Source: an uncultured Gammaproteobacteria bacterium
GTDB lineage: Bacteria > Patescibacteriota > Microgenomatia > CAYGWK01
Length of the DNA stretch: 64,000 bases
Assembly: GCA_964353785.1 (NCBI GenBank)
Contig: CAYGWK010000004.1
Location: 22,730-86,729 of the forward strand
Direction of reading: 5' to 3'
The notes below the pieces were generated by a model that made no database searches, was not told where the DNA came from, and saw only the letters and a list, made by a program, of their open reading frames with translations. The number at the start of each line of letters is the position of its first letter. The stretch's first letter is position 1. Shown in pieces: positions 3,808 to 59,998 of the stretch. The position numbers and the translations under genes are program-made.

Positions 3808-4302
3808 CTATTCCAGCGGTGATTCGAGAGACTCCTCGGCCTCTTTGATCTTTGGTTCCAAGACATCAGCAACATCACTTAGTCCCAGTGTGATGACGGC
3901 GGTGCCATCCTCTTCGGAAATCGTTGTTTCTTCTGAAAGAAGGCTAGATGTTTTGCTGGCTGACTTCCGAGTTTCATCAACGTGATGGGCCCTGATCAGG
4001 ATGTTGTCGGAATCTTGGGTTGTCCGGAGCGAGTTTATAACCTGTTCAGCTGCTCCTTCTCCGTTATCCCGATCGTAAAGCCAAGGATCGAGTGATTCAC
4101 CGCTTAGGTCCACCTTCATAACCCGACCCTTGAGATAGTCGAAGTCAGAGCAGCCGCGAGACAAAATCTCTTTGGCTTCTTCGACATCCATCGGTTTAGG
4201 GTCATAATGGAGGAACCCCATTCCTTGTGGTTTGGCCGCGTTGTATAGCGCTGCTAGAACAGCGGCTTTGTCCAATCCCTTCAGATCGATTAAATTAGAC
4301 AT
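3808..4302 (-). CDS. hypothetical acidic protein in a GC-rich foreign-looking segment
   Basis: ORF starting MSNLIDLKG with an AAGGAGA RBS 7 nt upstream; local GC clearly above the window average. Confidence 0.5.
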   Translation of the reverse strand: MSNLIDLKGLDKAAVLAALYNAAKPQGMGFLHYDPKPMDVEEAKEILSRGCSDFDYLKGRVMKVDLSGESLDPWLYDRDNGEGAAEQVINSLRTTQDSDNILIRAHHVDETRKSASKTSSLLSEETTISEEDGTAVITLGLSDVADVLEPKIKEAEESLESPLE

Positions 4303-6835: not shown

Positions 6836-6866
6836 ACCAGGCTAATTATACCTCAAAACTCTTTTT

Positions 6867-18684: not shown

Positions 18685-18758
18685 GGGCACGTAGCTCAGC
18701 TGGTTAGAGCGCGATTCTTATAAAATCGAGGTCCCTGGTTCGAGACCAGGCGTGCCCA
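18685..18758 (+). tRNA. tRNA-Ile with anticodon UAU (TAT)
   Basis: Manual cloverleaf: acceptor GGGCACG/CGTGCCC, D-arm TAGCTCAGCTGGTTAGAGC, anticodon stem CGATT/AATCG with loop CTTATAA, T-arm CCTGG-TTCGAGA-CCAGG; CCA not encoded. Confidence 0.8.
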
Positions 18759-18759
18759 C

Positions 18760-20054: not shown

Positions 20055-20127
20055 CGCGGGGTAGTGTAAAGTTGCACGGAAGGCTCATAATCTTCCAGCC
20101 TGGGCGCGATTCCCAGCCCCGCAACCA
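20055..20127 (+). tRNA. tRNA-like sequence with CAT anticodon and noncanonical T-loop (possible degenerate/unusual tRNA)
   Basis: Cloverleaf foldable by hand: acceptor CGCGGGG/CCCCGCA with C1:A72 mismatch, anticodon loop CTCATAA, T-loop CGCGATT lacks T54-T55-C56; encoded CCA; abuts the next tRNA with zero spacer. Confidence 0.35.
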
Positions 20128-20199
20128 GGCAGCGTAGCTCAGTGGTAGAGCGGTATCTTCATAAGATAATGGTCACAGGTTCAAATCCTGTCGCTGCCA
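20128..20199 (+). tRNA. tRNA with CAT anticodon (elongator Met or lysidine-type Ile2)
   Basis: Acceptor GGCAGCG/CGCTGCC, D-arm TAGCTCAGTGGTAGAGC, anticodon loop TTCATAA, T-arm ACAGG-TTCAAAT-CCTGT. Confidence 0.8.
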
Positions 20200-20202
20200 C
20201 TA

Positions 20203-45588: not shown

Positions 45589-45861
45589 ATGGCTCATACC
45601 ATCGTCCATCACCTTTTTATTGCTTTTAGGGCGATTGTGCGGGGTTTGGTGCTTTTAGCAGTCTGGATTGCGGTTTCCTTAACTGGACTCTTTTTCTGGA
45701 GCCAATTTTCCTCACCAATAAATCTTATAATCGGCGGACCTTTGTTTTTAATTGGGGTGATGATGGGTTTGTCTACCTTATACGAGACAACTGTCGGGAT
45801 TATCTCCTGGCGGTGGGGGAAAACCCATTGTCCTTTTTGCCAGAATAAGGCTTCTTCTTGA
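45589..45861 (+). CDS. small membrane protein, hypothetical
   Basis: 90 aa, two TM helices, C-terminal CPFC. Confidence 0.4.
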   Translation: MAHTIVHHLFIAFRAIVRGLVLLAVWIAVSLTGLFFWSQFSSPINLIIGGPLFLIGVMMGLSTLYETTVGIISWRWGKTHCPFCQNKASS

Positions 45862-46415
45862 CATTTGCTCGGTTCTAGTGTAAATTGCCTCTAACTTCTG
45901 CCTTTTTTACCCGCCAAGAATTGCTCTTCGAGCCGCGCTACGAACAGTAGGTAAGGCGAGAAGCAAGATTCGGCGGGCCTGCTCCAAAATTCTCCTGTCC
46001 AGAAAGGCTTTTTTATGCTTTACTGGGGTCTTTTTACCTTTGGCTACTGCCTTGGAGCGATTTTTGCCACCGCTATATTTTCAAGAAACACGGAATAACA
46101 CGGAAATCGAACGTGTTTGGATAAATAAGTTATTCACTAAAATCGCTAGTTTTGTTTTTAACTGCCGGTTATTCCTCAGAGACATAGAATTACATGGAAA
46201 ATATCGAGGCTATAGTTTTAGTGGTAAGGCTAGTTTCCCTGATTGACTATCTGATAATAGAATACTATATTAAACAAATTTTCAGCGATAATATAAACCT
46301 ATAAAAAAATTTCTTCCTCATTTTAGTCTCAAAAATAGCATTTTTTGACGGTTTTTAATTTTTGGCTTTACGCTTGATAGTCAAAATTCTCCAAAATTGT
46401 CCTAACTCATAGCCA

Positions 46416-46449
46416 CTTGACAAGAGTACCCATGAAAGGTAACAATATT
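46416..46449 (+). promoter_or_regulatory. conserved promoter/operator-like motif upstream of HTH-GT2 gene A
   Basis: CTTGACAAG-N-TACCCA-N-GTAACAAT shared with 56459-56492 and 50990-51015. Confidence 0.45.
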
Positions 46450-46457
46450 AGTAGGTA

Positions 46458-49400
46458 ATGACTGCCCAAGAAAAATTAAAAATTCTTCATAAAGTTTTAA
46501 AAGAAGGTTCTTCGGTTTCTTCTGTGTGTCGCCAAAACAAAATTTCCCGAAAAACTTTTTATTTTTGGAAGAAAAAATATTTATCCGCTGGGCCGAGGAA
46601 TAAGACATCTTGTTTGGAGAAACGCCATTTAAGAGGCCTACAGCATCCCAGAGGCTTAAAGCTTCGCTTTAAAAAAGACATTTTGAGGCTAGCAACACTT
46701 CACCCAGAACTTGGGAGCCACTCTCTTAGCAAAATCTTAAAAGAAAAAGACAAATTTTTGTCAAATCACGGGGTCTATACCTTATTAAAAGAGTTAGGTC
46801 TTGAAACTAGAGAGAAAAGAAAAGAATTTGCAGGTTATTATCGTAGTCCGTTAAGGCTTTTACCAGAGACGAGGAAGCGATTGGTGGAGGAGGTTGTCCT
46901 GGTTGGCAGAGGAATAAGTGAGGCAGCCAGAGAATATAAAGTTAGCCGGAAAACGCTTTGGAAATGGGCAAAAAGGTATAAAAAAGCCCAGGAAGCGCAG
47001 ATTGAGCTTGTATTGGCTCTCAAGGACCAAAATCCAACTGGCTCGGCTCATCCTCGAGGAACACCGGAATGGCTGGAAAGGAAGATTTTGGAGCATGTGG
47101 TTCGAAATCCAGAATATTCAACTCATAAATTAGCCCAAATTATTCCTCAAATCGGCAATCATGGGATACAGAATGTTTTATTTCGAAATAGTTTGAACAC
47201 TTTTGATAGGAGACTGGAATATGCTCGAATTCATGCTCCTGTTTCCCTAGTGCAACCAATCACTGGCTGGTTGGATCGCTTGCGAAGCGTCTGGCAGACT
47301 TTTGTTCCGACTATCGCTCCCGCTCCTCCCCCCAAGCTAATCAAACCTTTTTTGCTCTCCCTAGGGTCTTCTTCAGCTTTAGCTCTTCTTTTTCTTCTCT
47401 GGCTTCAGATGTTTTCTGGACAATCACTTTCTAGTAAATTAGGTCTATTTTCTGCTTCAATTTCTTTATTTGTTGGCTCTCTCTTTTTCTTATATTCAAT
47501 GAAATATTACTTTACTTTGGCAATAGTGCTCTCCTTTTCAAGTCAAACAGGACCCTTCGACTCCGCTCAGGGTAAAGAATCAGGAGAACAGGGAATGAAA
47601 GGCTGGTTAGCCAGAATATTTGGGAGAAATGGAGAGTGGAGAATGGAGAATGGAGAAAAACTTATTGCTGGAGGACTTCAACCAAACCTGGAACATATAA
47701 AGCTCAAGCGTTATCCTTTTATCTCTGTCCACCTACCTTTTTATAATGAGAAGAAAGTGGCCGAGCGGATTTTATCTGCCTGTACTTCTTTTGATTACGA
47801 GAACTATGAAGTAGTGGTCATTGATGATTCAACTGATGAGACGACGACCATTGTTCAGCGGTTTGCTGATCAATGGAATAAACAAATAAATACCAATAAA
47901 CCAATGATTAGAGTCATTCACCGTCCAACTCGGCAAGGATTTAAGGGTGGAGCCCTTCGGGAAGCCTTAAAACACACTAATCCCAAAGCCGAATTTATCG
48001 TTGTCTTTGATGCTGATTTTATACCGTACCCGGATACGCTGGAATTATTTATTAAGTATTTCAAAGTAAATAACAATGGTTCAGAAGACTACATTAAAAA
48101 CAATGTTGCCGCTGTTGCCGGATACCAGTGGCATGTTTTGAATAAATCAGAGAATTGGATAACCAGGGGAGTGAGAACAGAATATTCAGGCAGTTATGTC
48201 ATTGAAAGACCTGGACAGGAGATTTTAGGGGCAATGAAACTTATTCATGGTTCAGTTTACGCCATAAGAAGCGATCTTTTAAAAAAGATTGGTTGGGGAA
48301 CTTCAATTACCGAAGATTTTGAATTAACCCTTCGACTATACGCTCAGGGCTACAAAGTCATTTACACTCCTTATATTCAAGGACCGGCAGAGTGCGTCTC
48401 AACTATCAAGCGTTTAATCCGCCAAAGAATGCGTTGGAGCGAAGGACACTCACATTGTGTAAAGAAGATGTTTTTAAGGCTCCTTAGCACTCCTCGCATG
48501 AATTTGCCAGAAAAACTGGAATTCTTATACATCTCTCCCTACTATCTTCAGGCTTTTTTCTTTTTAGTGGGAACTTTTTCCTGGCTTTTAGCGGAAACTG
48601 TTTTTCGCGCCCGACTGCCTTTCTGGACCTCTTTATGGGGCTGGAGTTTGGTTTTAACCAATTTCTTTGCCCTACCTTTAATGAATGCCGTTGGTTTATT
48701 TTTGGAGGAAGCCGAGGAGAAAGACTATTTAGGTCTTTTGTCTTTTGTTGCCCTTTCCTATATTTTAGTTCCTTTTCAAGCCTATGCTTCAGTTAAAGGC
48801 TTTTTGGAAAAACAAGAAGGACCTTGGTTTCGGACTCCAAAAACAGGCTTAATTACTGATATCTTCACCCGAGGAAAGTTTTATCGCTGGATTTCGGGGA
48901 TTATTCCCGGGCGCATAGCGCCCGCGATGAGCACAGATATCAGTGCTAATCCCTATCTCGCTTTGGCGACGGCCAATAATCAGTTTAATCAATTTAAAAT
49001 CAGGCGCCGGCATTTAAAATGGGTGGGAAATTTAAGCGTGGTTGGAGTTAGCTTGATGAGTATTATTTTACTGATGATGGCCCCTCTTATTCCCCTTGCT
49101 TCTGCTCCAGCCTCGGCTCAAACAGGCGGTTTTAGAAGTCTTAAAAATGCTGTTCCTTCTTCCCAGGTAAAATTGGCGAAGGAGGTAATCGAAAGCCCGG
49201 TCAATGTCAGTTATGAACTGGGTGAGGGCAGTTTGGAATATATTTTTCATCCTGAACCAAGGGTGAGAGTCAAACTAGGCAATAAAGAAATAGAAACCAG
49301 GGTGGCTAAATCTGACGGCGGGGGCAATCCGCTTCCAGAAAAGGCTTACAAGGAGGGAATCATTTATACTTATCGGGAAATTTTTGAAGGTGTTGATCTC

Positions 49401-50954
49401 CGTTATATAGCTGATATCGAAAAGCTAAAAGAGGAATTTATTCTTAATGAAGATAGAGAATTTGAATCAGTTGAGATGGAAGTTAGATTAACCGGTTTGG
49501 TTTTAGCCCAGGTTGGAGAAGAGATTCAAGTTGCTCCAGCAGAAGGAGGCGAGTCTTTGTTTTATTTCCAAAAACCCTATCTTTATGAAGAGAAAAATCC
49601 GGAAAATAAAAGCCAGGGAATTAAATACGAGATGGAAAAAAGTCAATTTGGCTGGAGGATAAAGAAGGTTTTAACTGATGAGGGAAAAAACTGGCTATCA
49701 GATCCTGCCCGAGATTTTCCGGTGGTTCTTGACCCGACTTTGGTTAAATCAAATGTAGAAGCTTCAGGGATGACAGATGTTGAAACAAGATATCCGGGCA
49801 TTAACCGAAAGATTGCCTATGTTTCCGGTACCGTCGATGGAGCCGCTTGGTACGTAGTGCACGCCAACGGTAACCAAATAATTTATAGGCGTTGTTTGGT
49901 AAGCTCCGGCTGTAATGAAGACGGTGACTGGTCGGCCGCTCAGGATATTGACGATGATGCTTCTGCCAACCATGTTGCCCCCACTCTTTATTATAAATCA
50001 GCAGATAGGCTTTGGGTCGGGTGGACAGATAATTCCGGTGCTGATCCTGATGACACTCTCCATCTTCGTTACATTGATACCACGAGCTCCTTTCCGCACA
50101 GTTTGGGAACGCATTGCGAAACGCTTGATTTAGGGACTATTGGCGGAAACTTCAATACGATTTTTGCTGTTGGCGATAACAGCCATGCGGTTATCGGGAC
50201 CCAGTGTCTTGAAGGAACAGGGACGACATCTTATCTTGTTGATATGAATACTTCGGATTGTACTTATGTATCTATTTTGGCCGGCAGCGGAATGGAAAGC
50301 GGAGTGACAGATTTAGCTGCTTCTGCCGTTGCCCTGGGAAACAATATTAGTATTATCTATGAAGACAACGGACCTACGCCCGATGATTTACGCCATAGTG
50401 TTTATGATGTTTCTACGGGCGTGTGGGACAGTATTGATAACGATGTTGACGGCGCGGACAATATCGACGAAGCGGAGGATTTTTCTGTGACAACCGATGG
50501 AACCAGCATTTGGGTTTTGGCGGTTGATGGGACAACGGATACTGATTTTTTCCGCTGCAGCAGCTGTTTGGACACCGCTCCTTCCTGGACGCAGTCTGAT
50601 GAGATTCCTTGGAGCGGGCAATCAAACGTGACTGAAGCTTCCTTGACTTATATTTCAGGAACAAGCAGTCTGGCTGCTTTTGTGATGAAGGATACCACCA
50701 ACGAGCAAGTTTATACAAAGAGTACTCTTATCGGTACAATTTCCTGGGGGACGGAGTATTCGCTCAGTTATACTGCTGGTACCAATGGCAATCTTTCTTC
50801 GGTGATGAGTGTTGCCAGCGAAGATGATATTGGTGTGGTGATTCTTGAAGGAGTAGCCTTGCGTTTTTCTACCATTCCGGAAAATAGTTTGATTTTTCTA
50901 ATTCTTGCCCCATTTTTGCCTGGAGTAATTAGGAAATTGAGAAGGTATAATTAA
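46458..50954 (+). CDS. giant fusion protein: duplicated transposase-like HTH N-terminus + processive GT2 (cellulose-synthase-like) + large extracellular C-terminal domain
   Basis: Two N-terminal HTH modules (ISRKTFYFWKKKY; VSRKTLWKWAKRY) each followed by a GNHGIQNVL-type segment; GT2 motifs HLPFYNE..., DADF (DxD), TED (TEDFELTLR), QRMRW (QxxRW); ~600-aa S/T/D/G-rich ectodomain; C-terminal IPEN-TM-RKLRR tail. Confidence 0.75.
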   Translation: MTAQEKLKILHKVLKEGSSVSSVCRQNKISRKTFYFWKKKYLSAGPRNKTSCLEKRHLRGLQHPRGLKLRFKKDILRLATLHPELGSHSLSKILKEKDKFLSNHGVYTLLKELGLETREKRKEFAGYYRSPLRLLPETRKRLVEEVVLVGRGISEAAREYKVSRKTLWKWAKRYKKAQEAQIELVLALKDQNPTGSAHPRGTPEWLERKILEHVVRNPEYSTHKLAQIIPQIGNHGIQNVLFRNSLNTFDRRLEYARIHAPVSLVQPITGWLDRLRSVWQTFVPTIAPAPPPKLIKPFLLSLGSSSALALLFLLWLQMFSGQSLSSKLGLFSASISLFVGSLFFLYSMKYYFTLAIVLSFSSQTGPFDSAQGKESGEQGMKGWLARIFGRNGEWRMENGEKLIAGGLQPNLEHIKLKRYPFISVHLPFYNEKKVAERILSACTSFDYENYEVVVIDDSTDETTTIVQRFADQWNKQINTNKPMIRVIHRPTRQGFKGGALREALKHTNPKAEFIVVFDADFIPYPDTLELFIKYFKVNNNGSEDYIKNNVAAVAGYQWHVLNKSENWITRGVRTEYSGSYVIERPGQEILGAMKLIHGSVYAIRSDLLKKIGWGTSITEDFELTLRLYAQGYKVIYTPYIQGPAECVSTIKRLIRQRMRWSEGHSHCVKKMFLRLLSTPRMNLPEKLEFLYISPYYLQAFFFLVGTFSWLLAETVFRARLPFWTSLWGWSLVLTNFFALPLMNAVGLFLEEAEEKDYLGLLSFVALSYILVPFQAYASVKGFLEKQEGPWFRTPKTGLITDIFTRGKFYRWISGIIPGRIAPAMSTDISANPYLALATANNQFNQFKIRRRHLKWVGNLSVVGVSLMSIILLMMAPLIPLASAPASAQTGGFRSLKNAVPSSQVKLAKEVIESPVNVSYELGEGSLEYIFHPEPRVRVKLGNKEIETRVAKSDGGGNPLPEKAYKEGIIYTYREIFEGVDLRYIADIEKLKEEFILNEDREFESVEMEVRLTGLVLAQVGEEIQVAPAEGGESLFYFQKPYLYEEKNPENKSQGIKYEMEKSQFGWRIKKVLTDEGKNWLSDPARDFPVVLDPTLVKSNVEASGMTDVETRYPGINRKIAYVSGTVDGAAWYVVHANGNQIIYRRCLVSSGCNEDGDWSAAQDIDDDASANHVAPTLYYKSADRLWVGWTDNSGADPDDTLHLRYIDTTSSFPHSLGTHCETLDLGTIGGNFNTIFAVGDNSHAVIGTQCLEGTGTTSYLVDMNTSDCTYVSILAGSGMESGVTDLAASAVALGNNISIIYEDNGPTPDDLRHSVYDVSTGVWDSIDNDVDGADNIDEAEDFSVTTDGTSIWVLAVDGTTDTDFFRCSSCLDTAPSWTQSDEIPWSGQSNVTEASLTYISGTSSLAAFVMKDTTNEQVYTKSTLIGTISWGTEYSLSYTAGTNGNLSSVMSVASEDDIGVVILEGVALRFSTIPENSLIFLILAPFLPGVIRKLRRYN

Positions 50955-50989
50955 GATATGTTTCCACGCGGCAAGATTTTTTGCCCCCC

Positions 50990-51053
50990 CTTGTTACCCA
51001 ATAGGTGTTTACATTAAATTTTGAGGCAGATAGTATCCATTAAGTCTTAACAA
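50990..51053 (+). promoter_or_regulatory. conserved upstream motifs (CTTG-TACCCA-GTTTACATT plus AGTATCCATTAAGTCTTAACAA) before the 51079 gene
   Basis: Second motif is near-identical (21/22) to 56518-56539. Confidence 0.45.
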
Positions 51054-51078
51054 ATGAAGAAATGGTATAATAAGTTGT

Positions 51079-52701
51079 ATGTTTGGCTACCCAACCCAAA
51101 TTTCTCTTATTCCTACCACTGTCGCTCTGGTTAGATTTATCGAGGAACACGGTTTTGTCTCCTGGTATCCTTATTGGTATCTAGGAAACCCATTACATTA
51201 TCTTACTGGTCCAATTTTGCCAGTAATTTGCCTAGTGTTGCATAGGATATTTCCAGCCCTTAATTTCTTTGATATTGTCTACATTTTAATTTTTTTCTCT
51301 TTCATTTTAGGTCCTTTAGGTCTTTTTTTCTTCGTCCGCAAACTTTCCGGCAACTTTTTCTTGTCTCTTGTCTCTTTTCTCTTCTTTCTTTTTCTGCCTT
51401 GGCACTATTTTTCTGGCCTGGTTTTAGATAATGGCAGTCATATTTTAGCCCTAATGGTTCTCCCTTGGGTCCTTTGGTTAAGTCTTTTTGCTTTGGAAAA
51501 GTGGCATAAAGCCTGGGTTATCCTCGCCACGCTCGCGATGGCTTTTGTTATATTAATAGATAGTTTGATAGGGGTTCCTCTGGTGGTGGGACTAGTTCTT
51601 TTTGTATCACTTAAGATACTGAAATCAACTGAAGGCATTGAGATAAAGATTGCTAAAGCACTTTTTTTATTAGTCTTAGGTTGGCTTTTGACCTTCTGGT
51701 GGTTTAGTCCGGGGTACTGGCTGACAATTCTTCAGGCTCCATCCTTAGCCGGGAAGGGGCTTTTAAGTGTTGTAGTTTGGTTAGGAAGACTGCTTTTAAA
51801 CCTAGTTCCCCTGGTTCTGGCGGTTTTTTCCGTTTCTCGATTCAAAAAAATTAAAGATAGAACCTTAATTTTTACTTTAGGTTGGCTTGGGTTTTTTGGT
51901 TTTCTGACTTTGATGAGATTTCTGTCTGACCCGGATTTCTGGCAGGACTGGTCAAGTTACGGAGTAGAGTTGGAGTTAGGGATAGCGATGGCGCTGGGGT
52001 TAATTTTGAACAGATGGAAGTTTTCAGTGTTTCAGAAAATATTCAGCGTTTCTGTGATTCTGGGCTTGGCGGCAGTTTGGGGCTATGCCTTTAGGTGGAC
52101 GCCACTTCTGATTCCCAGGAAAAATATAGAAAACACCGTTGAGTACCGGATTGGCAAACAGCTATCCGAGATTGCTAAGCCCCTTTCGGCAAGCTCAGGG
52201 CAAGCTGGCGAACGAGTTTTTCTTTCAGGCTCAACTGCTTTTTGGTTAAATGCCTTTTTTGACATTCCCCAGGTTCGGGGTGGGAAAGATGAGACTTCGG
52301 TTGAGCCTTTATGGAGACAAGCGGCTTGGGAAATACGAGAGGGCCCTTCGACAAGCTCAGGGCAGGAAAACACGGAAAAATGGCTGAAAACACTGAATGT
52401 TTCTTATTTAGTGGTTCACACCCAAGATTCTGAAGAATATTACCATGATTTTTCCCACCCGGAAAAATTTGAGTCTGCCAAATCGCTTAAAAAGGTTTTT
52501 TCGGATAAAGGGGATGTTGTTTATCGGGTTGAAGGAGTGGTTCCGTCGCTAAAAGAAGAAGAATATAAAGACTGGACAAAACCAATTGGTTGGGGGATAA
52601 GTCTTTTAGCGGTTCTAGTTCTTTTTCTTTTTCCAAAATCTTGGGAATTATTGTCCGCCAAAATGCCTAAATTGGATTTGGGTGGAGAAGAGAATTATTA
52701 A
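51079..52701 (+). CDS. polytopic membrane protein, possible GT-C-type glycosyltransferase
   Basis: ~12 TM helices in the N-terminal 350 aa, soluble C-terminal domain, final TM. Confidence 0.45.
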   Translation: MFGYPTQISLIPTTVALVRFIEEHGFVSWYPYWYLGNPLHYLTGPILPVICLVLHRIFPALNFFDIVYILIFFSFILGPLGLFFFVRKLSGNFFLSLVSFLFFLFLPWHYFSGLVLDNGSHILALMVLPWVLWLSLFALEKWHKAWVILATLAMAFVILIDSLIGVPLVVGLVLFVSLKILKSTEGIEIKIAKALFLLVLGWLLTFWWFSPGYWLTILQAPSLAGKGLLSVVVWLGRLLLNLVPLVLAVFSVSRFKKIKDRTLIFTLGWLGFFGFLTLMRFLSDPDFWQDWSSYGVELELGIAMALGLILNRWKFSVFQKIFSVSVILGLAAVWGYAFRWTPLLIPRKNIENTVEYRIGKQLSEIAKPLSASSGQAGERVFLSGSTAFWLNAFFDIPQVRGGKDETSVEPLWRQAAWEIREGPSTSSGQENTEKWLKTLNVSYLVVHTQDSEEYYHDFSHPEKFESAKSLKKVFSDKGDVVYRVEGVVPSLKEEEYKDWTKPIGWGISLLAVLVLFLFPKSWELLSAKMPKLDLGGEENY

Positions 52702-52831
52702 AAAACCACCAAGGGAGAAATTTTTCGCCCTCTTAAATCCAGGACTATCCTGGAACGGGCACCATAATTGTGGTATAATCCAATTCCGAATTTTGGCTCT
52801 TTGAAATTTTAACCCTTAAAGGAGGCTTAAG

Positions 52832-53677
52832 GTGTTTAAGAAACAAGAGTTAGTTCCACTCAAATACGGAGGCTCGCGGATAAAACTGGCAGTTGAGGTT
52901 GCTCTCTTTGCCGTTTCGGCAATTATTTACACAGCGCTCATGGGAATCCTGGGAGCGATGGCACTCTTAGCGTTCATCTTGATCCATGAAGGCGGTCATG
53001 TTTGGGCCATGGAAAAAGTAGGAGTTCGACTTAAAGGGATTTATTTCCTTCCCCTTCTAGGAGCAGCCGTAATTCCAGAAGGAAACTTTCGTTCCTATAA
53101 AGCCGAATTCTATACCGCCATCATGGGTCCAACAATGGATTTGACATTCGCCTTGATTGCCCTAGTCAGCTACTGGTATACCAGGAGCGTTGTCTTCCCA
53201 ACAATTGCCGCTATGTTTGCCTTCATGGACCTTCTTAACCTTTTGCCAGTTTTACCTCTAGATGGAGGGTTGATGTTCAAGTCAATTACTTTTTCCCTTT
53301 CGCCTAAAATCAAACTCCTCCTCATCGCCCTTGGATTTCTGGCTGTCTTGCTGGTGGTCACCGCGATATTTGTTCTACCCAGCGCTTTCATTCTTCTTCT
53401 CGCCACTGTTACGGGTAGAATCCCTGACTCATGCTTCTCAATTGGTCTAGCCCTATTTGCTGCTTTCCTAATTGGTTGGGCTCTTTTGCAAAGTAAAGCG
53501 CTGGCTCAAGAAGAGAAGATGGTCAAAGAAAGAATGACAAAAGTGGAAACCGCGGTTCATTCGCTTTTGTATACGATGTTAGCGGGAACTCTGCTTTTAG
53601 TCATCACCGCCAGTTTAGTGCTAATCATAGCCAATCCAGAAGGGCTACTAGATTTTGCGAGCCTCCGAATTCCCTAA
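52832..53677 (+). CDS. site-2 protease family (peptidase M50) membrane metalloprotease
   Basis: HExxH (ILIHEGGHVWAM) in a TM helix and LPVLPLDGG (LDG) motif. Confidence 0.75.
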   Translation: MFKKQELVPLKYGGSRIKLAVEVALFAVSAIIYTALMGILGAMALLAFILIHEGGHVWAMEKVGVRLKGIYFLPLLGAAVIPEGNFRSYKAEFYTAIMGPTMDLTFALIALVSYWYTRSVVFPTIAAMFAFMDLLNLLPVLPLDGGLMFKSITFSLSPKIKLLLIALGFLAVLLVVTAIFVLPSAFILLLATVTGRIPDSCFSIGLALFAAFLIGWALLQSKALAQEEKMVKERMTKVETAVHSLLYTMLAGTLLLVITASLVLIIANPEGLLDFASLRIP

Positions 53678-53824
53678 GTGGCCACCTGAGTGGTTTCTAA
53701 ATTTCCAAACCACAAAATGGTGGCCTCTTTCTTTTTTTACCAAATTCAGGAAGTTTATTTGGGAGCAAATAAGTGTTGTGCGGGGGAGCGGAGATTCAAC
53801 ACCCGGTGTTGGTTTCTTGATTTC

Positions 53825-53971
53825 TCATTCCATTTCTTCAATTTTGCTTTCTAACTCATCTACCCTATCTTTTAAGTCTTGAATTGTTCTGTTATTTTCC
53901 AACGGACAGAGATTACTTCCTGCATTAGCGCAGGTTGTACACATTGACCAATCAAAATTGCAATTTGCCAT
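53825..53971 (-). CDS. small Cys-rich peptide (48 aa), hypothetical
   Basis: MANCNFDWSMCTTCANAGSNLCPLENN... with GGTGAG RBS 5 nt upstream; four Cys in the N-terminal half, coiled-coil-like acidic C-terminus; below the ORF-track size cutoff. Confidence 0.3.
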   Translation of the reverse strand: MANCNFDWSMCTTCANAGSNLCPLENNRTIQDLKDRVDELESKIEEME

Positions 53972-54009
53972 TTTTACTCACCGCTTTTTCAAGAGCACAA
54001 AAAAACTCT

Positions 54010-54789
54010 CTATATTTTTTCCACCAAAACATCTTTTATTAAGGCCCTTTCGGTTCCCGAATTTCTGAAACCAACAGTGCCATACTCAAGATTGATAGGG
54101 AAAGGGATCTTGACCACGCGTCCTTCCGGTTCTTCCTTAAATTCAAACATGACTGCTCCATGGGGAATTAACCATTCTCGATTAAAGACACAGTTTTTAT
54201 CTTCATAAAGCTTTATTCCTATAGAATTTTTTTCGCAAGATAGAATAACCCTATACCATTTATCTAAGGCTAATTTTTTAGCAAATTTCAAATTTGTCTC
54301 TTCCGCCTCCCAAGCTCTCCAACCTCCGTTAATTCTTATATGGGGACGGATTCCATTTTCTCCAACTTGTAGCATCACATAGTTAGAAAGATTTATCGCT
54401 CTTGCTACTACACCCAAGCAAGAATTTACGATTTTAAATTCTAAGCTCAGATTATAGTCACTCCAGCTTAGACACTTTGAATAAATGAATCCTGGTTCGG
54501 AATCTGTAATGACAAAACACTTTTGGGGCCTAAGGTACTCAAATTTGCCCTTCCCAAGCCAATCATCCCTATCCTCTCTTTTGGTCAATGGAATAAAATA
54601 GAAGTCCTTGTCTCTAACTCGGAGAAGAATAACCACAAAGAGAGAGGTGGCAGTAATCATTACAGATAAAAAGAGAAGGGTTCTTGGGTCCGCAGCATAC
54701 CTGAAAGCCAAAAAGTATGAAATAAGTGCGGAGATAGCAGTCAAAAGGTCGAATTTATAATTTTTTGTAAAATAAAGTATTCTTTTCAT
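54010..54789 (-). CDS. membrane-anchored protein with C-terminal beta-sandwich (DUF1080/LamG-like) domain
   Basis: Two N-terminal TM helices; C-terminal SLEFKIVNS...NGG...W.RV.L.C..N.I.I.L...NCVF pattern recalled for DUF1080/concanavalin-like folds. Confidence 0.4.
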   Translation of the reverse strand: MKRILYFTKNYKFDLLTAISALISYFLAFRYAADPRTLLFLSVMITATSLFVVILLRVRDKDFYFIPLTKREDRDDWLGKGKFEYLRPQKCFVITDSEPGFIYSKCLSWSDYNLSLEFKIVNSCLGVVARAINLSNYVMLQVGENGIRPHIRINGGWRAWEAEETNLKFAKKLALDKWYRVILSCEKNSIGIKLYEDKNCVFNREWLIPHGAVMFEFKEEPEGRVVKIPFPINLEYGTVGFRNSGTERALIKDVLVEKI

Positions 54790-55346
54790 TTTTTCTCAAT
54801 TTTATGCCTTGATTTCAAGAACTCAGCGGTAAGCGTGGCCACAATCTCATGGGGTTTTTCATCTGCTTTATCTGAACGTAACTGTTCATTGTCTAAATCA
54901 ATAAAATTCTGCGACTTAACATTTCTACTTTTATCACCTATGTAAACGACTGCTATTTTACGCCCATCATTTGTATAACCAAGTTTTGCTTCTACCCAAT
55001 GCTGTTCATCTTCACTTCTATCTTTAATTGGTTGTATTGGGCTATCGAGAGAAATGGTTTTTAATTTATTATCTAATTTCGCTTGGTATGCGATGTGAGC
55101 AAGTCGCCTCAATTCAATTACGTTTCTCTCTAGCTCATGCCTTCTCTTACATATGGGACAAATCCCAAGTTTATAGTTCTCTTCTCTGAACTCTAGAACG
55201 GCTCCACATTCCAAACACATCGGCCCAGTGATTTCGTAAATTTCTTTAACATTTATATCATTCTCACTCACTCTAAAAACAGGTTTCCAAAAAGCGTTGC
55301 GAAACCTAAACCTCTCCTCTTCTAATGGATAGAACCCTTTCTTCAT
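54786..55346 (-). CDS. zinc-ribbon protein, hypothetical
   Basis: CLECG...CPICKRRH zinc ribbon; 4-bp overlap with the downstream gene. Confidence 0.45.
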   Translation of the reverse strand: MKKGFYPLEEERFRFRNAFWKPVFRVSENDINVKEIYEITGPMCLECGAVLEFREENYKLGICPICKRRHELERNVIELRRLAHIAYQAKLDNKLKTISLDSPIQPIKDRSEDEQHWVEAKLGYTNDGRKIAVVYIGDKSRNVKSQNFIDLDNEQLRSDKADEKPHEIVATLTAEFLKSRHKIEKK

Positions 55347-55464
55347 AATACAAAGTAATTTAACTCAATTTTTCTCAACTTCCAGCCAAAGTTTTGCAAC
55401 CCTGGTTAATTGTCAGACTAGCACACGGAGTGCTAAAAATCAATAGCTGGCTTTTTTTGGTTTT

Positions 55465-55473
55465 AGTGATATA
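55465..55473 (+). promoter_or_regulatory. extended -10 promoter element (TGATATAAT)
   Basis: TGnTATAAT 10 nt upstream of the 55483 ATG. Confidence 0.4.
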
Positions 55474-55482
55474 ATTTTTGGC

Positions 55483-56001
55483 ATGAATGAAAGATTATCA
55501 TCTACCGAGTTTTACGATGCGGTTATCGCTATCGTTGGAAAAACTGACGATAGGAAGGGATACATCCAAGAAACACTCATTCCAAAAATGGATGAGCACA
55601 GAGGAAGAGTTCGACCGCAGACTAGAGAGGAGATTGTTAAAAAGTTATTTTCTGCTGACATGACTAAACCAGGGGAGGCAGTAGAGATTATTGAAGAGGC
55701 AGTTAGGGCTAAAAGAAAGTTAACTCCAGAACTTGCTTTAGAGGTGGCGGATGTAATCTATTATACGCTCCAGCCAAACTGTCCAGATTTTGCAAATAAC
55801 CCGGAGCCATTTATAACAGGTTTAGGGATCGATATGGAGACTGCCTACACCCTCTGTATAGTAAAATATGAAGCCAGACTTCTTTGTGATAGTCTTTCAA
55901 ATTTTAAAGAAATAGAAAAGGAAATAATGACTAGATTTTTAGAAAAAGGAAGAGGATTATTGACCGGCTCGCAAGAGAAGAAAGGCAAGAAAGATCATTA
56001 A
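55483..56001 (+). CDS. hypothetical protein
   Basis: 172-aa ORF. Confidence 0.45.
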   Translation: MNERLSSTEFYDAVIAIVGKTDDRKGYIQETLIPKMDEHRGRVRPQTREEIVKKLFSADMTKPGEAVEIIEEAVRAKRKLTPELALEVADVIYYTLQPNCPDFANNPEPFITGLGIDMETAYTLCIVKYEARLLCDSLSNFKEIEKEIMTRFLEKGRGLLTGSQEKKGKKDH

Positions 56002-56295
56002 GATGATATAGACAGTGAGAAGAGCAGTAGTAAACAGGGGAAGCTGACTTTGTTTTTGGGTAGGTGGCGGTGCGCCTGATTCCGGTTTTGCCTCAGAGAT
56101 CTTTTCCTCTATCTCGGGCTTTTTAGCGAAGATATAGTTTAATTCTTCCTTTTTATAATATCTTCGGTTGGTTGGTGAGCGGTGGGCTTTGATGATACCC
56201 CTTTTTTCCCAGCGCCTTAAGGTATCTTTTGAGATTCTTAAAAGTTTGGCAGCTTCACCGATTGAAAGCCAGTCTTGTTGAGTAAGTTCATTCAT
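55957..56295 (-). CDS. excisionase/MerR-type HTH protein with C-terminal TM helix
   Basis: LSIGEAAKLLRISKDTLRRWEKRGII HTH of the excisionase/MerR family, Pro-rich linker, C-terminal hydrophobic helix. Confidence 0.6.
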   Translation of the reverse strand: MNELTQQDWLSIGEAAKLLRISKDTLRRWEKRGIIKAHRSPTNRRYYKKEELNYIFAKKPEIEEKISEAKPESGAPPPTQKQSQLPLFTTALLTVYIILMIFLAFLLLRAGQ

Positions 56296-56458
56296 TTTTG
56301 ATATAGTTCCTCAGGTAATTCTTATTATTACTAAGTATTGCCTAGTATGGTGAGTTTAGACCAATTTGCCAGGTGATACGATATTATACTGTTATTTTTC
56401 CCTTGTCAACTGGAAAAATTTTGTCTCCAAAACCTTAAATTAATCATTATAAATGGCT

Positions 56459-56539
56459 CTTGACAAGCGATACCCACTTGATGTTAACATTTACTCGGGA
56501 GGCTGTTTTTACCCCTTAGTATCCATTAAATCTTAACAA
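56459..56539 (+). promoter_or_regulatory. conserved promoter/operator-like motifs upstream of HTH-GT2 gene B
   Basis: CTTGACAAGCGATACCCACTTGATGTTAACATT and AGTATCCATTAAATCTTAACAA, ending 6 nt before the ATG. Confidence 0.45.
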
Positions 56540-56545
56540 CTGCCA

Positions 56546-59500
56546 ATGTCGCCTAAATACACTGCTCAAGAAAGATTAAAGCTAATTGAAAGAGTAATCC
56601 TTGGTGGCGAGAAGGCAGCAGAAGTCTGTCGCAAAGCAGGAATCTCTCGAGTTTTGTTCTATAGTTGGCTTAAGAAATACCGTGAGGCTGGTCAACAAAT
56701 AGAGGCTTTAGTTCCTGGAAAGAAGAAAATCTCAATTTCTCCAAGAAAAGTCACTCCCCAGAAAGAAAAACAAATCCTCGCCATAGTTAAAGAGCATCCC
56801 CAGTGGTCAACTAAAAAAATAAGCGCCGCTTTGCCCAAAGAACCCTCGGGAAAGCCAATTGTCGGCAATCATGGGGTCCAGAATGTCCTTCAAAGACTTA
56901 ATCTTTCAACCCGAGAGGAAAGAACTGCTTATATAAAGGCAGTTAGCAGACCAAAAGAGGAAGTGCTAACTGGAGTTCAGCTTACGCCTGAACAGAAACT
57001 AGAGATGCTTGAAAAGGTAGTCATTGGTAAAGAAAAGGTAAGCAAAGTTTGTCAGGAATATGGGATTTCCAGAACCCTTTTCTACAGACTTAAAAGACGT
57101 TATGAAGAGGCGGCTTTGGAAGAAAAACTGCGGGCGGTTGCCCCAGCGGTTCGCCATATAGAAAGGTATTGGCGGCAAACTCCGGAGAGGTATGAAAGAG
57201 CAGTTTTGGATCTGGTGGGAAAGCACCCAGAATATTCAGTTCGTAAACTGGTTGCCCATTTGCCAGAAGTGGCTGGCGTTCCCATTGTTGGTCATCATGG
57301 AGTCCAAAATATCCTGCACCGATATAATCTTTCTTTATATGAGCAAAGACAAGCTTTCGCTTCGGCCCAAGTGACGCCAATTACCCGGTTTGTTGGCGCT
57401 TTCGAACAAGCCTTTGCTAGACTTTTTGTCTTTCCAGTTGAGACAAGAGCGGCCGTGGTCAGATTTTTGGGGATTGCTGCCGCAAGCACTTTTGCTACTG
57501 TTGTGGTTTTAGGTAGTTTGGGATATTTTGCTACAGTTTTCAAGGGAGTTGCTCCAATTTACCGACCCGGATTAGCCTTTGCCTCAATCGCTCTTTCAGT
57601 TGGTTCTATTTTTTTCCTCTATTCAATGAAGTACTACTTTACTTTGGCCATAGTTTTGTCTTTCTCCCGCCAGCCAGGAGAACCAGCAGTTTTGGGACTA
57701 AATGGAGAATTTAAGAAAAATGGCAACGGGGGATGGCTTTCAAGGATTTTTGGCCTCCGGCCCAACGGGCCGATAGGCCCGGAGGGTTTGGGCAAAGGCA
57801 AAGAACGGCGAGTGGTTGGGCTTGAGCCAAATCTTGAATCAGTTAAACTTGAAAAACATCCTTTTGTCTCTGTTCACCTACCTTTTTATAATGAGAAAAA
57901 AGTGGCGGAGCGAATTTTATCTGCCTGTACCTCTTTTGACTATCCAAACTATGAGGTAATTGTGGTTGATGATTCCACTGATGAAACAGTTGAGATTTTA
58001 AAAGGTTGGCAGAATCATCCAAAAGTCAAAATTGTCCACCGCCAAACTCGAGAGGGATTTAAAGGAGGAGCCCTTCGGGAAGCCCTAAAACACACGGATC
58101 CCAAAGCCGAGTTTGTCGTTGTCTTTGATGCTGACTTTATTCCTTATCCTGATACTTTGGAATTATTTTTGAAATACTTTAAAACCTACAATCAGGATTC
58201 AGAGGATTTCTCTAAATCAAATATTGCCTGCGTTCAAGGATATCAATGGCATGTTTTAAACAAGTCTGAAAATTGGATTACTCGGGGAATAAGAAGCGAA
58301 TATGCTGGCTCGTATGTTATTGAGCGTTCTGGCACTGAAGTCTTAGGAGCGCTAAAACAAATTGCCGGTTCAGTCTACATGGTTCGGGCAGACCTCCTTA
58401 AGAAATTTGGTTGGGGGACTTCAATTACCGAAGATTTTGAGCTAACCTTGAGGCTTTATGAACAAGGCTACAAAGTGGTTTACACTCCCTATGTTCAAGG
58501 TCCGGCAGAGTGCGTCTCTACCATCAAGCGTTTAATTCGCCAAAGAATGAGATGGGCAGAAGGACATAGCCATAATGTTCGGAAAATGTTTTTAAGGCTT
58601 CTTGGGTCGCCTAGGATGACTTTAACCGAGAAAATGGAGTTCCTCTACCTTTCTCCCTATTATCTTCAGGCTTTCTTTTTCTTGGTGGGCACTTTTTCCT
58701 GGCTTATGGCGGAGACTGTCTTTAGGGCTCGCCTTCCTTTCTGGACTTCTCTTTGGGGCTGGTCGCTTGTTTTAACTAACTTTTTCTCTTTGCCTTTAAT
58801 GAATGCGGTTGGTTTGTTTTTGGAAGAAGGGGAAAATAAAGATTATTTAGGAATCTTATCTTTTATTGCTTTATCTTACCTTCTGGTTCCCTTCCAAGCC
58901 TATGCTTCAGTAAAAGGGTTTTTAGAGAGAGAAGAAGGACCTTGGTTTAGGACGCCTAAAACTGGTCTTATTACCGACATCTTTACCCGAGGAAAATTCT
59001 ATCGCTGGATTTCGGGGATTATTCCTGGAAGACGGCCAGCGGTTGTCCCTGCCCCTGGAGGAGTTTTGGGGAACAAACCAGCCTGGGCAACCAATCCTTA
59101 TCTCGCTTTGGCGACGGCGAATAATCGGTTTGAGGATTTTCAGATTAAAAGAAAAAGACTGCCTTGGGTGGCTAGGGCGGCCTTGGCGATCCTCTTAATT
59201 TTTACCACCACCTTTTTTCAACTGTCCCAGAATATAAAAGTGGTCCAGGCCACCGGGATGGTAAGTCCTTTAAAACTTTCTCAAGGGCAAGTCGGTGATG
59301 GGACATGGCCTGCCTGGGGGAATTATATGACGAATAACAGTAATGGCTATGGCACGGGAACCTTATTTAGGTTTAATAGAAGGAACGCTAATTCCAGTGG
59401 TAATAATTATACCTGGTATACCAATCTTTTACCAGTATCCGATGGGGGGGATGCGGCGAGTGTTCCCGCTGGCCAGTATTTTGTCCAGCTAGCCAAATCC

Positions 59501-59998
59501 GGCTATAGCGCCGCCGGCAACTACATTAATTTTGGTTTACAGCTTCTTTTAACCAATAATAATGGGACTACCAGGACACAGATTTTATGGGGCATCCAAC
59601 AAATAAACACCAGTGATCTCAATAATACTATCTTTCAATATTATGTTGGTAATAAATCAGCGGCCAATACGATCACCTACGCGGCTAGGAACCGGTTTGC
59701 TTTGAGGGTTCTCTATATCAATGCCAACACCACCTCAGCCACGGTTAATTGGTTAATTAACAATAGTACTGTTCCCGCCAGGCTCTTTTTGCCCGGAAAC
59801 TTAATCATCCCGGAGATTCCTCTACCAATGGTCATGGCAATGATGCTGGCGATCATGCCGGTGCTGCCGACACTCGTTTCCGGTCGGTTGCGGAAACCAG
59901 GGCAAAACATTTTTGAGGAATTCTTCTTAGCTTGGAAAGATTTGATGAGGCAATTAACAGGGAAAGGGGAGGAGGCGTTGGACGAATTGCCGGTATAG
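56546..59998 (+). CDS. giant fusion protein paralog: duplicated transposase-like HTH N-terminus + processive GT2 + Asn-rich extracellular C-terminal domain
   Basis: HTH modules (AGISRVLFYSWLKKY; YGISRTLFYRLKRRY) plus GNHGVQNVL/GHHGVQNIL segments; GT2 motifs HLPFYNE, DADF, TEDFELTLR, QRMRW nearly identical to 46458 gene; C-terminal IPEIP-TM-RLRK tail. Confidence 0.75.
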   Translation: MSPKYTAQERLKLIERVILGGEKAAEVCRKAGISRVLFYSWLKKYREAGQQIEALVPGKKKISISPRKVTPQKEKQILAIVKEHPQWSTKKISAALPKEPSGKPIVGNHGVQNVLQRLNLSTREERTAYIKAVSRPKEEVLTGVQLTPEQKLEMLEKVVIGKEKVSKVCQEYGISRTLFYRLKRRYEEAALEEKLRAVAPAVRHIERYWRQTPERYERAVLDLVGKHPEYSVRKLVAHLPEVAGVPIVGHHGVQNILHRYNLSLYEQRQAFASAQVTPITRFVGAFEQAFARLFVFPVETRAAVVRFLGIAAASTFATVVVLGSLGYFATVFKGVAPIYRPGLAFASIALSVGSIFFLYSMKYYFTLAIVLSFSRQPGEPAVLGLNGEFKKNGNGGWLSRIFGLRPNGPIGPEGLGKGKERRVVGLEPNLESVKLEKHPFVSVHLPFYNEKKVAERILSACTSFDYPNYEVIVVDDSTDETVEILKGWQNHPKVKIVHRQTREGFKGGALREALKHTDPKAEFVVVFDADFIPYPDTLELFLKYFKTYNQDSEDFSKSNIACVQGYQWHVLNKSENWITRGIRSEYAGSYVIERSGTEVLGALKQIAGSVYMVRADLLKKFGWGTSITEDFELTLRLYEQGYKVVYTPYVQGPAECVSTIKRLIRQRMRWAEGHSHNVRKMFLRLLGSPRMTLTEKMEFLYLSPYYLQAFFFLVGTFSWLMAETVFRARLPFWTSLWGWSLVLTNFFSLPLMNAVGLFLEEGENKDYLGILSFIALSYLLVPFQAYASVKGFLEREEGPWFRTPKTGLITDIFTRGKFYRWISGIIPGRRPAVVPAPGGVLGNKPAWATNPYLALATANNRFEDFQIKRKRLPWVARAALAILLIFTTTFFQLSQNIKVVQATGMVSPLKLSQGQVGDGTWPAWGNYMTNNSNGYGTGTLFRFNRRNANSSGNNYTWYTNLLPVSDGGDAASVPAGQYFVQLAKSGYSAAGNYINFGLQLLLTNNNGTTRTQILWGIQQINTSDLNNTIFQYYVGNKSAANTITYAARNRFALRVLYINANTTSATVNWLINNSTVPARLFLPGNLIIPEIPLPMVMAMMLAIMPVLPTLVSGRLRKPGQNIFEEFFLAWKDLMRQLTGKGEEALDELPV

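Follow-up and report, generated by a model that had tools for sequence, protein, structure and literature searches.

We examined a stretch of 64,000 nucleotides (nt) from contig CAYGWK010000004.1 (assembly GCA_964353785.1, positions 22,730 to 86,729, placed in Patescibacteriota by GTDB), referred to here as the window, which contains a locus with three large membrane protein genes. Two of them, starting at positions 46458 and 56546, encode glycosyltransferase family 2 (GT2) synthases of 1498 and 1150 amino acids (aa), and both proteins begin with two transposase-type helix-turn-helix (HTH) regions that are followed by the GT2 domain (Pfam). The gene between them, at 51079, encodes a 540-aa membrane protein, and a small gene for a 112-aa MerR-like protein is divergent from the 1150-aa synthase gene. 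A first-pass annotation, made from the letters alone, had proposed that motifs upstream of all three membrane genes are operator sites of an autoregulatory circuit, on the grounds that the regulated proteins carry HTH domains. This is true of two of the three; Pfam finds no HTH domain in the 540-aa protein. We redefined the motif as a 19-nt bipartite box, TAYCCA-N5-T[G/C]TTWACA (second half TSTTWACA), occurring in head-to-tail pairs of a box A and a box B, and on sequence evidence we regard these repeats as very probably protein-binding operators.

With at most one mismatch allowed on both strands, exactly four boxes were found in the window, starting at 50995, 51034, 56471, and 56520 (chance expectation 0.15), and none of 100 shuffled sequences reached four copies. 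All four lie on the plus strand in intergenic DNA and point at the genes. Their weight-matrix scores range from 18.9 to 36.6 bits against a maximum of 16.5 bits in shuffled sequence, a comparison that is partly circular because the matrix was built from the boxes themselves and the instances were gathered by regular expression. The pattern used to gather the 39 instances fixed TA.CC and T.TT.ACA, so that only the spacer and the degenerate positions are informative; the central position of the 5-nt spacer is A or T in all 39. The box has the anatomy of a bipartite site, with two conserved half-sites and a weakly conserved spacer between them, and its core, TAYCCA-N5-TGTTWACA, is asymmetric. At both genes with a box pair, in the window and in the related locus L007, the GTT of the A boxes corresponds to CTT in the B boxes. 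A consistent difference of this kind within a genome is what module-specific recognition would predict.

All motif strings quoted in the first-pass annotation are present in the window, and the positions given for the two 22-nt elements (51032-51053 and 56518-56539) and for the string at 50990-51015 were correct, while the 31-nt string spans 46416-46446 rather than ending at 46449 and the 33-nt string spans 56459-56491 rather than ending at 56492. The 22-nt element is indeed common to two upstream regions, with 21 of 22 positions identical, and at up to three mismatches these are its only two matches in the window (0.01 expected). It had been described as a separate motif lying 15-25 nt before the start codon. 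It is instead box B, the second copy of the same box, and its end is separated from the start codon by about 6-7 nt at 56546 and by 25 nt at 51079. The coordinates of these and the other features of the locus are collected in Table 1.

Table 1. Genes, promoter elements and boxes of the locus (positions in the window).
Feature	Position	Strand	Score or basis
Promoter TTGACA-17-TAACAA with TACCCA and degenerate second half GGTAACA	46417..46445	+	3.9 bits
1498-aa HTH-HTH-GT2 paralogue with C-terminal DUF7948	46458..50954	+	Pfam, NCBIfam
Box A TACCCAATAGGTGTTTACA, no -35 upstream	50995..51013	+	32.3 bits
GAGGCA, inter-box RARGCT element	51023..51028	+	alignment
Box B TATCCATTAAGTCTTAACA	51034..51052	+	26.3 bits
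Extended -10 TGGTATAAT, ends 7 nt before ATG, no -35	51063..51071	+	sequence
540-aa polytopic membrane protein, about 10 transmembrane segments and a soluble domain	51079..52701	+	hydropathy
112-aa MerR/HTH_17/excisionase-like protein with C-terminal transmembrane helix, divergent from 56546	55957..56295	-	Pfam, NCBIfam, hydropathy
Canonical promoter TTGACA-17-TAATAT of the MerR-like gene	56381..56409	-	promoter consensus scan
-35 hexamer TTGACA of the 1150-aa HTH-GT2 gene	56460..56465	+	sequence
Box A TACCCACTTGATGTTAACA, occupies the 19-nt spacer and extends into the -10 hexamer	56471..56489	+	36.6 bits
-10-like hexamer TAACAT behind a TGT (resembling an extended -10), at 19 nt from the -35	56485..56490	+	sequence
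GAGGCT, part of inter-box RARGCTAAT	56499..56504	+	alignment
Box B TATCCATTAAATCTTAACA, core of the 22-nt element	56520..56538	+	18.9 bits
1150-aa protein: two tandem paired-like (IS481/IS630-type) modules, two transmembrane helices, processive GT2	56546..59998	+	Pfam, NCBIfam, AlphaFold, Foldseek, hydropathy

Upstream of the 1150-aa synthase gene, box A lies within a predicted core promoter with the layout TTGACA-N5-TAYCCA-N5-TGT-TAACAT. The TTGACA that had been taken as part of the operator is the -35 hexamer of this promoter. The distance from the TTGACA at 56460 to the TAACAT at 56485 is 19 nt compared with 16-18 nt in sigma-70-type promoters, a range that includes the 17 nt of the promoter at 46417, and a promoter consensus scan skipped the 56460/56485 pair because of this spacer length. 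A plain promoter, TTGACA-N19-TAACAT, was not enough to account for the boxes, as it fits box A of the GT2 genes but not box B, the boxes of the 540-aa gene, an inverted copy in locus L002, or the conserved TAYCCA. A further element, RARGCTAAT, sits 7-10 nt after box A, approximately at the predicted transcription start, in the window and in all related loci. No Shine-Dalgarno (SD) sequence was found before 56546. The start codon of the synthase genes, ATG or CTG, is directly preceded by a conserved ACCTGCC(C/A), and in two related loci GC-rich insertions of 60-140 nt separate box B from the synthase start codon (L001 9935-9999 and L002 5895-6040). The former contains a hairpin-like CCCCG...CGGGG and the latter a repeated CACGAAT; both insertions are absent from the window and from L003.

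We took a comparative approach to the conservation of these promoters. The regulon described here covers the window and about 20 related loci (with handles beginning in L), which were chosen via the synthase gene or the motif itself: loci were collected for homologues of the 1150-aa protein, and public collections were scanned with the tandem-box pattern alone. All homologues of the 1150-aa protein belong to Patescibacteria, the candidate phyla radiation (CPR), namely to Microgenomates, Woesebacteria, and similar groups. The scan of one genome per GTDB species returned two matches, both directly upstream of HTH-GT2 genes, and the scan of metagenomes returned nine, comprising six HTH-GT2 promoters and three satellite repeats. 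In the 16 aligned GT2 loci, TTGACA or a near match precedes box A by 5 nt (14 loci) or 4 nt (two loci), 14 of the promoters have 19 nt and two have 18 nt separating the -35 from the -10, and TGTTAACAT within box A is invariant. All 19 nt of the box A at 56471 are identical in L001, L002, L003, and L013, with proteins 60-73% identical. Box B is present in most GT2 orthologues. The order of TTGACA, box A, RARGCTAAT, and box B is kept at protein identities of 44-73%, where the flanking DNA can no longer be aligned. Measured from start to start, boxes A and B are either 36-40 nt (n=8) or 49-50 nt (n=6) from each other, two spacing classes that differ by about one helical turn, and in L017 the spacer between the half-sites is 15 nt, not 5 nt.

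These observations bear on whether the boxes are merely relics of a mobile element or dispersed repeat (e.g., former IS481-like terminal repeats) with no present regulatory role. The near identity of the two B boxes of the window would fit such an origin, and since the HTH modules of the synthases are transposase-derived, their cognate sites may descend from transposon ends. Relics, however, would not be expected to occur as only four gene-directed, intergenic copies in 64 kb, or to keep position, orientation, and sequence at orthologous promoters whose flanks have diverged, and no transposase catalytic domain was found nearby. We consider this origin without function very unlikely. We also looked for copies at unrelated places and inside genes, as the first-pass annotation had advised. 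All window copies are intergenic, and so are those of the 21 related loci save one, in a linker-coding stretch of L012. There, the synthase coding sequence contains a perfect box (TACCCACATGATGTTTACA, 4129-4147) within the stretch for the linker that joins HTH modules 1 and 2, with a TATAAA about 30 nt further on. From its sequence context this copy may serve as an internal promoter that yields an isoform with one module.

Box B and RARGCTAAT are probably located in the 5' untranslated region of transcripts from the box A promoter, and the elements keep their order and orientation, as might be expected if the module acted as RNA, in the form of a 5' leader or riboswitch-like element. RNAalifold, however, predicted no base pairs for 22 aligned modules, single-sequence folds of the window copies were no more stable than those of shuffled sequences (z from -0.56 to +0.84), and no Rfam match was found at the gathering threshold or at E <= 1. 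In addition, any plausible transcription start is downstream of box A, which yet has the same sequence as box B, and the L002 copy is inverted. An RNA element is accordingly the least credible of the explanations that we considered, and we think it most improbable.

The promoter of the 540-aa gene differs from those of the synthase genes. A TTGACA-like box had been reported at all three upstream sites, which is correct for 46416 and 56459; at 50990 the sequence reads CTTGTTACCC, with no TTGACA box. The extended -10 element TGGTATAAT between box B and the start codon is the probable leaderless promoter of this gene, as judged by its sequence and position, and the arrangement of TGCTAGAAT, TGCTAAAAT, and TGGTATAAT is repeated in L003, L001, and L002. 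Leaderless transcripts are suggested to be common in this genome, with TGGTAWAAT or TGCTATAAT placed 6-11 nt before many of the ATG codons in the window (9101 on the minus strand; 24591, 28696, 36612, 37247, and 51079 on the plus strand) and an SD-like sequence in only 11 of its 34 long open reading frames (ORFs). A box pair also precedes the orthologues of the 540-aa gene in L001, L003, L007, L017, and L020, and the L002 orthologue has a single, inverted copy. The function of the encoded protein was approached by profile searches: the window protein itself has no Pfam match, six of 11 orthologues match PF10131 (PTPS_related) weakly (best E 2e-5), and a sequence search of solved structures with the family gave nothing significant.

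Boxes were also found before other genes in the related loci. These include a box pair before an aldehyde dehydrogenase gene in L001 (3684-3742), boxes before a 161-aa ORF in L024 (2403-2421), and copies before small or unannotated ORFs in L018 (6664) and in L019, where a divergent pair (7828/7966) occupies a 660-nt intergenic region. Such copies hint at a wider regulon. In L016, a purine-rich stretch of 2.6 kb between the MerR-like and synthase genes (5137-7771) has no ORF of at least 70 aa and contains two more box pairs, at 5436/5501 and 6751/6813, with no genes after them; it may give rise to non-coding transcripts or consist of decayed genes.

The boxes could also be read by another factor, either an alternative sigma factor or an unlinked global regulator, in which case the link to HTH-GT2 genes would reflect a shared cell-envelope regulon. 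Boxes in front of genes without HTH domains (those for the 540-aa protein, the aldehyde dehydrogenase, and the 161-aa ORF) and in the ORF-free DNA of L016 are compatible with this, as are the resemblance of the second half-site to an extended -10 element (TGnTWACAT) and an extracytoplasmic function (ECF) sigma factor gene near the L003 locus. That ECF gene is not conserved in the remaining loci, however, and blocks only 5 nt apart do not suit the -35/-10 geometry of the sigma-70 family. The boxes are moreover arranged in tandem, in one case inverted, at variable distances from the start codon, the typical promoters of the window are of the TGGTAWAAT type, and the half-site content of the boxes tracks the architecture of the downstream protein, as described below. 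We therefore judge another factor to be distinctly unlikely.

The site upstream of the 1498-aa gene had been presented as an equal third member of the motif. Its score is at background level, and we found it to be a diverged promoter variant and not a true box. Over 46416-46446 it has CTTGACAAG, TACCCA, and TAACA in common with the 56459 site. In comparison with the boxes, TTGACAAG..TACCCA..TAACA is kept, the promoter spacer is 17 nt instead of 19 nt, and the box has a 1-nt deletion; no box B is found upstream of this gene. The promoter is identical at 31 of 31 positions in the orthologous locus L023, where the surrounding intergenic DNA is 69% identical, and this difference identifies it as a conserved functional promoter. 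L024, a more distant orthologue, retains the standard 19-nt form. By these sequence comparisons, the 46416 site is a derived variant and a relative of box A.

Several other features were noted in the same part of the locus and elsewhere in the window. About 360 nt upstream of the 1498-aa gene is a small ORF for a hydrophobic 27-aa peptide (MLYWGLFTFGYCLGAIFAT..., 46015-46098, plus strand), whose first 19 residues are identical in L023 (7558). A related small ORF (MLLWGAFTLGFCVGS...) precedes the 540-aa-type gene in L024, and a TTGACA-17-TAAATT promoter was found near the window ORF at 45858-45886. Further away, the window has a tRNA-Ile gene with the anticodon TAT (18685-18759) and two abutting tRNA-Met genes with zero spacer (20055-20200).

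The 1150-aa synthase unites a catalytic and a DNA-binding-type domain on one polypeptide. In Pfam, its N-terminus matches HTH_28/HTH_23 together with HTH_32/HTH_Tnp_Tc3_2, twice, and in NCBIfam it matches the N-terminal part of IS481/IS630/IS3 transposases, again twice. By NCBIfam, the GT2 domains of both synthases come closest to PgaC/IcaA and to the catalytic subunit of cellulose synthase (CelA-like), and the GT2 alignment shows conserved D,D,D, TED, and QxxRW-type motifs. An AlphaFold model of residues 1-300, based on an alignment of 46 rows and with a mean predicted local distance difference test (pLDDT) score of 89, contains four three-helix HTH units in the order a1-b1-a2-b2 (residues 7-47, 71-117, 148-188, and 214-259). 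The best PDB matches of this model in Foldseek were the paired domains of Pax6, Pax5, and Prd, SETMAR, and Tc3, with TnsB and CENP-B also found. All of these are DNA-binding domains built from bipartite HTHs, and most of the structures were solved bound to DNA. A sequence search of solved structures with the N-terminal profile gave nothing significant. A paired-like module that reads two half-sites across a loose spacer matches the anatomy of the box. Two transmembrane helices, predicted by hydropathy between the DNA-binding and GT2 domains, would place both domains in the cytoplasm, and this predicted topology would allow contact between the N-terminus and DNA.

We compared the HTH content of the synthases with the box content of their promoters. 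The window gene at 56546 and most orthologues encode all four HTH units (a1, b1, a2, and b2) and are preceded by two full boxes. In L018, and with different deletion boundaries in L020 and L022, b1 is deleted, and in these loci box A is intact and box B keeps TGTTWACA but has lost TAYCCA. The box B of the 540-aa-type gene in L020 likewise lacks TAYCCA. In L024, where the synthase has the same CTG start and SD sequence as in L020 and L022 but keeps b1, box B keeps ATCCA. The L021 protein has only one module, with an in-frame stop 13 codons upstream, and its gene has exactly one box. These cases are suggestive of a rule, read from sequences, by which a synthase with fewer HTH subdomains has correspondingly fewer half-sites in front of its gene.

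The same comparison corrected several gene models. GT2 homologues that appeared to lack HTH domains (P0027, P0065, and P0069) were examined, and two of them are products of mis-called starts, in L020 and L022, where the gene begins at a CTG after GGAGG. The synthase homologues at L020 5743, L022 5758, and L024 7794 all start at a CTG located 5-6 nt past a perfect GGAGG. Gene callers took an internal ATG in these three loci, and as a result databases list GT2 proteins free of HTH domains. Checking such homologues turned up proteins with three HTHs and with two HTHs. The boxes thus aid gene calling, as several HTH-less homologues were mis-called in this way and have a CTG as their true start.

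Our proposal is that the boxes are bound by the synthase itself. In this mechanism, the cytoplasmic N-terminus of the membrane-embedded protein would bind with one module per box, the 'b' subdomain reading TAYCCA and the 'a' subdomain reading TGTTWACA. Occupied box A, which covers the promoter spacer and the -10, and occupied box B in the start region would block RNA polymerase, and the synthase would repress its own gene by negative autoregulation. It would also control the gene of its 540-aa partner via the box pair just upstream of the leaderless extended -10 promoter. The autoregulatory operators of the first-pass annotation are in this respect supported by conservation, by restriction to intergenic DNA, by the bipartite fit, and by the tracking of HTH units by half-sites, with the amendment that the 540-aa gene would be co-regulated and not autoregulated. 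We favor the synthase as the binder with somewhat better than even confidence, and whether its binding amounts to repression seems to us evenly balanced. The complete proposal, with operators read by the synthase N-terminus, repression of its own gene, and co-control of the 540-aa gene, we would place slightly on the favorable side of even.

The first-pass annotation had looked for the regulator among the HTH modules alone and overlooked the divergent MerR-like gene at 55957-56295, whose product is another candidate binder. In this product, an HTH at residues 9-57 is followed by a low-complexity linker and a transmembrane helix at residues 83-112, and the TTGTCAAG element of its promoter is conserved in L001 and L003. 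This membrane-anchored protein could bind the boxes and repress or activate by twisting DNA in the manner of MerR on an over-long 19-nt spacer, in which case the HTHs of the synthase would serve otherwise. The gene is divergent or nearby in the window, L001-L005, L007, L013, L014, L016-L020, L022, and L024, the over-long spacer is present in 14 of the 16 GT2 promoters, and the protein matches the MerR, excisionase, and, more weakly, BldC HTH models of Pfam and NCBIfam. The 2107-aa homologue P0125 has a MerR/HTH_17-type HTH (residues 11-58) fused to GT2, with no transposase-type HTH detected, a fusion that suggests a functional (Rosetta-stone) link between the MerR-like protein and the synthase. 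However, the box is not a dyad, as no inverted repeat is centered in the spacer AGCGATACCCACTTGATGT, and the 112-aa protein has neither a coiled coil nor an effector domain. Box B, like the two boxes of the 540-aa gene, is not located in a -35/-10 spacer. The loss of TAYCCA tracks the loss of b1 from the synthase in loci where the MerR-like gene persists. In L019, full boxes precede a synthase gene with no adjacent MerR-like gene, whereas the box of the MerR-adjacent paralogue is degenerate, and no MerR-like gene was found in the available, short flanks of L006, L009, and L012. Binding by the MerR-like protein in place of the synthase therefore appears unlikely, although the two proteins may act together, with the small membrane protein possibly serving as a second DNA-contacting subunit.

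Several points weigh against the synthase as an autorepressor. A protein embedded in the membrane must reach the chromosome, and a strictly kept 19-nt spacer next to a conserved divergent MerR-family gene is what MerR-type activation predicts. About three independent events (L018, L020 with L022, and L021) underlie the correlation between HTH units and half-sites, which is uncorrected for phylogeny. In two paralogue lineages, represented by the 1498-aa synthases of the window and L023 and by the product of the L019:1451 gene, all four HTHs go together with nothing more than a degenerate box A, and box B is absent. The Foldseek E-values are weak (0.08-4 overall; 0.08-1.2 with probabilities of 0.63-1.0 for Pax6, Pax5, SETMAR, Prd, and Tc3), which we attribute to the flexible linkage of the subdomains. 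Finally, box B and the -10 element of the 540-aa gene are 13 nt apart in the window and 5 nt apart in L003, and the box in L002 is inverted, so that the sign of regulation is uncertain.

The CPR or Patescibacteria have very small genomes with few recognizable regulators, and to our knowledge almost nothing is established about their gene control. The locus offers a sharply defined and deeply conserved cis-element together with a candidate regulator that is also the regulated enzyme, a GT2 resembling PgaC and cellulose synthase. The stoichiometric rule that HTH subdomains match half-sites could be checked on proteins expressed in E. coli, with no need for culturing. In the broadest form of the proposal, an integral-membrane processive synthase reads DNA through tandem transposase-derived modules that bind operator pairs at the promoters of its own gene and of partner envelope genes; we regard this as possible but a little short of an even chance. 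The operators may then descend from the ends of the donor transposon. If it is true, this would be a case in bacteria of transposase DNA-binding domains that were turned into a transcription factor, in parallel to the paired domain of animals, and a membrane-embedded enzyme doubling as a regulator would be a new type. Ultra-small CPR cells would in this way wire the synthesis of envelope glycans to transcription, with the locus tethered to the membrane.

In the literature that we searched, we found no description of an HTH-GT2 fusion or of the box motif. The proposed regulator can nevertheless be compared with several known systems. PutA, BirA, and NadR are trigger enzymes, DNA-binding enzymes that repress their own operons. 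As in these proteins, an enzyme and a DNA-binding domain share one polypeptide here and the operators lie at its own promoter, and PutA also involves an interplay of membrane association and DNA binding. The enzyme here is, in contrast, an integral-membrane processive GT2 polysaccharide synthase, and its predicted DNA binding would be by tandem transposase-derived, paired-like modules and not by a ribbon-helix-helix or winged helix. ToxR, TcpP, and CadC are membrane-anchored one-component regulators, and they resemble the synthase in having a cytoplasmic N-terminal DNA-binding domain, a transmembrane tether, and direct-repeat sites at promoters. They are, however, activators with OmpR-type winged helices and periplasmic sensors, whereas the synthase has a C-terminal glycosyltransferase and sites that overlap the core promoter.

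Among DNA-binding folds, the Pax paired, Tc1/mariner, and IS630/IS481 domains (PDB 6pax, 1k78, 1pdn, 7s03, and 1u78) share with the synthase modules two linked HTHs and a site of about 20 bp that is read in two parts, with lower specificity in the spacer. Here, the transposase catalytic domain is absent, the module is tandemly duplicated and joined to a membrane enzyme, promoters and not transposon ends carry the sites, and the fold matches have weak E-values. BldC is a small MerR-like protein that binds direct repeats as head-to-tail multimers, and the locus recalls MerR and BldC systems in its 19-nt spacer, its divergent MerR-family gene, and its direct-repeat sites. It differs from them in having no dyad centered in the spacer, a MerR-like protein that is membrane-anchored and free of coiled-coil and effector domains, and boxes outside spacers as well. 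The proposed circuit thus belongs to a known kind, the autoregulatory fusions of enzyme and regulator, and what would be new here is the use of tandem domesticated transposase modules as the reader on an integral-membrane processive synthase.

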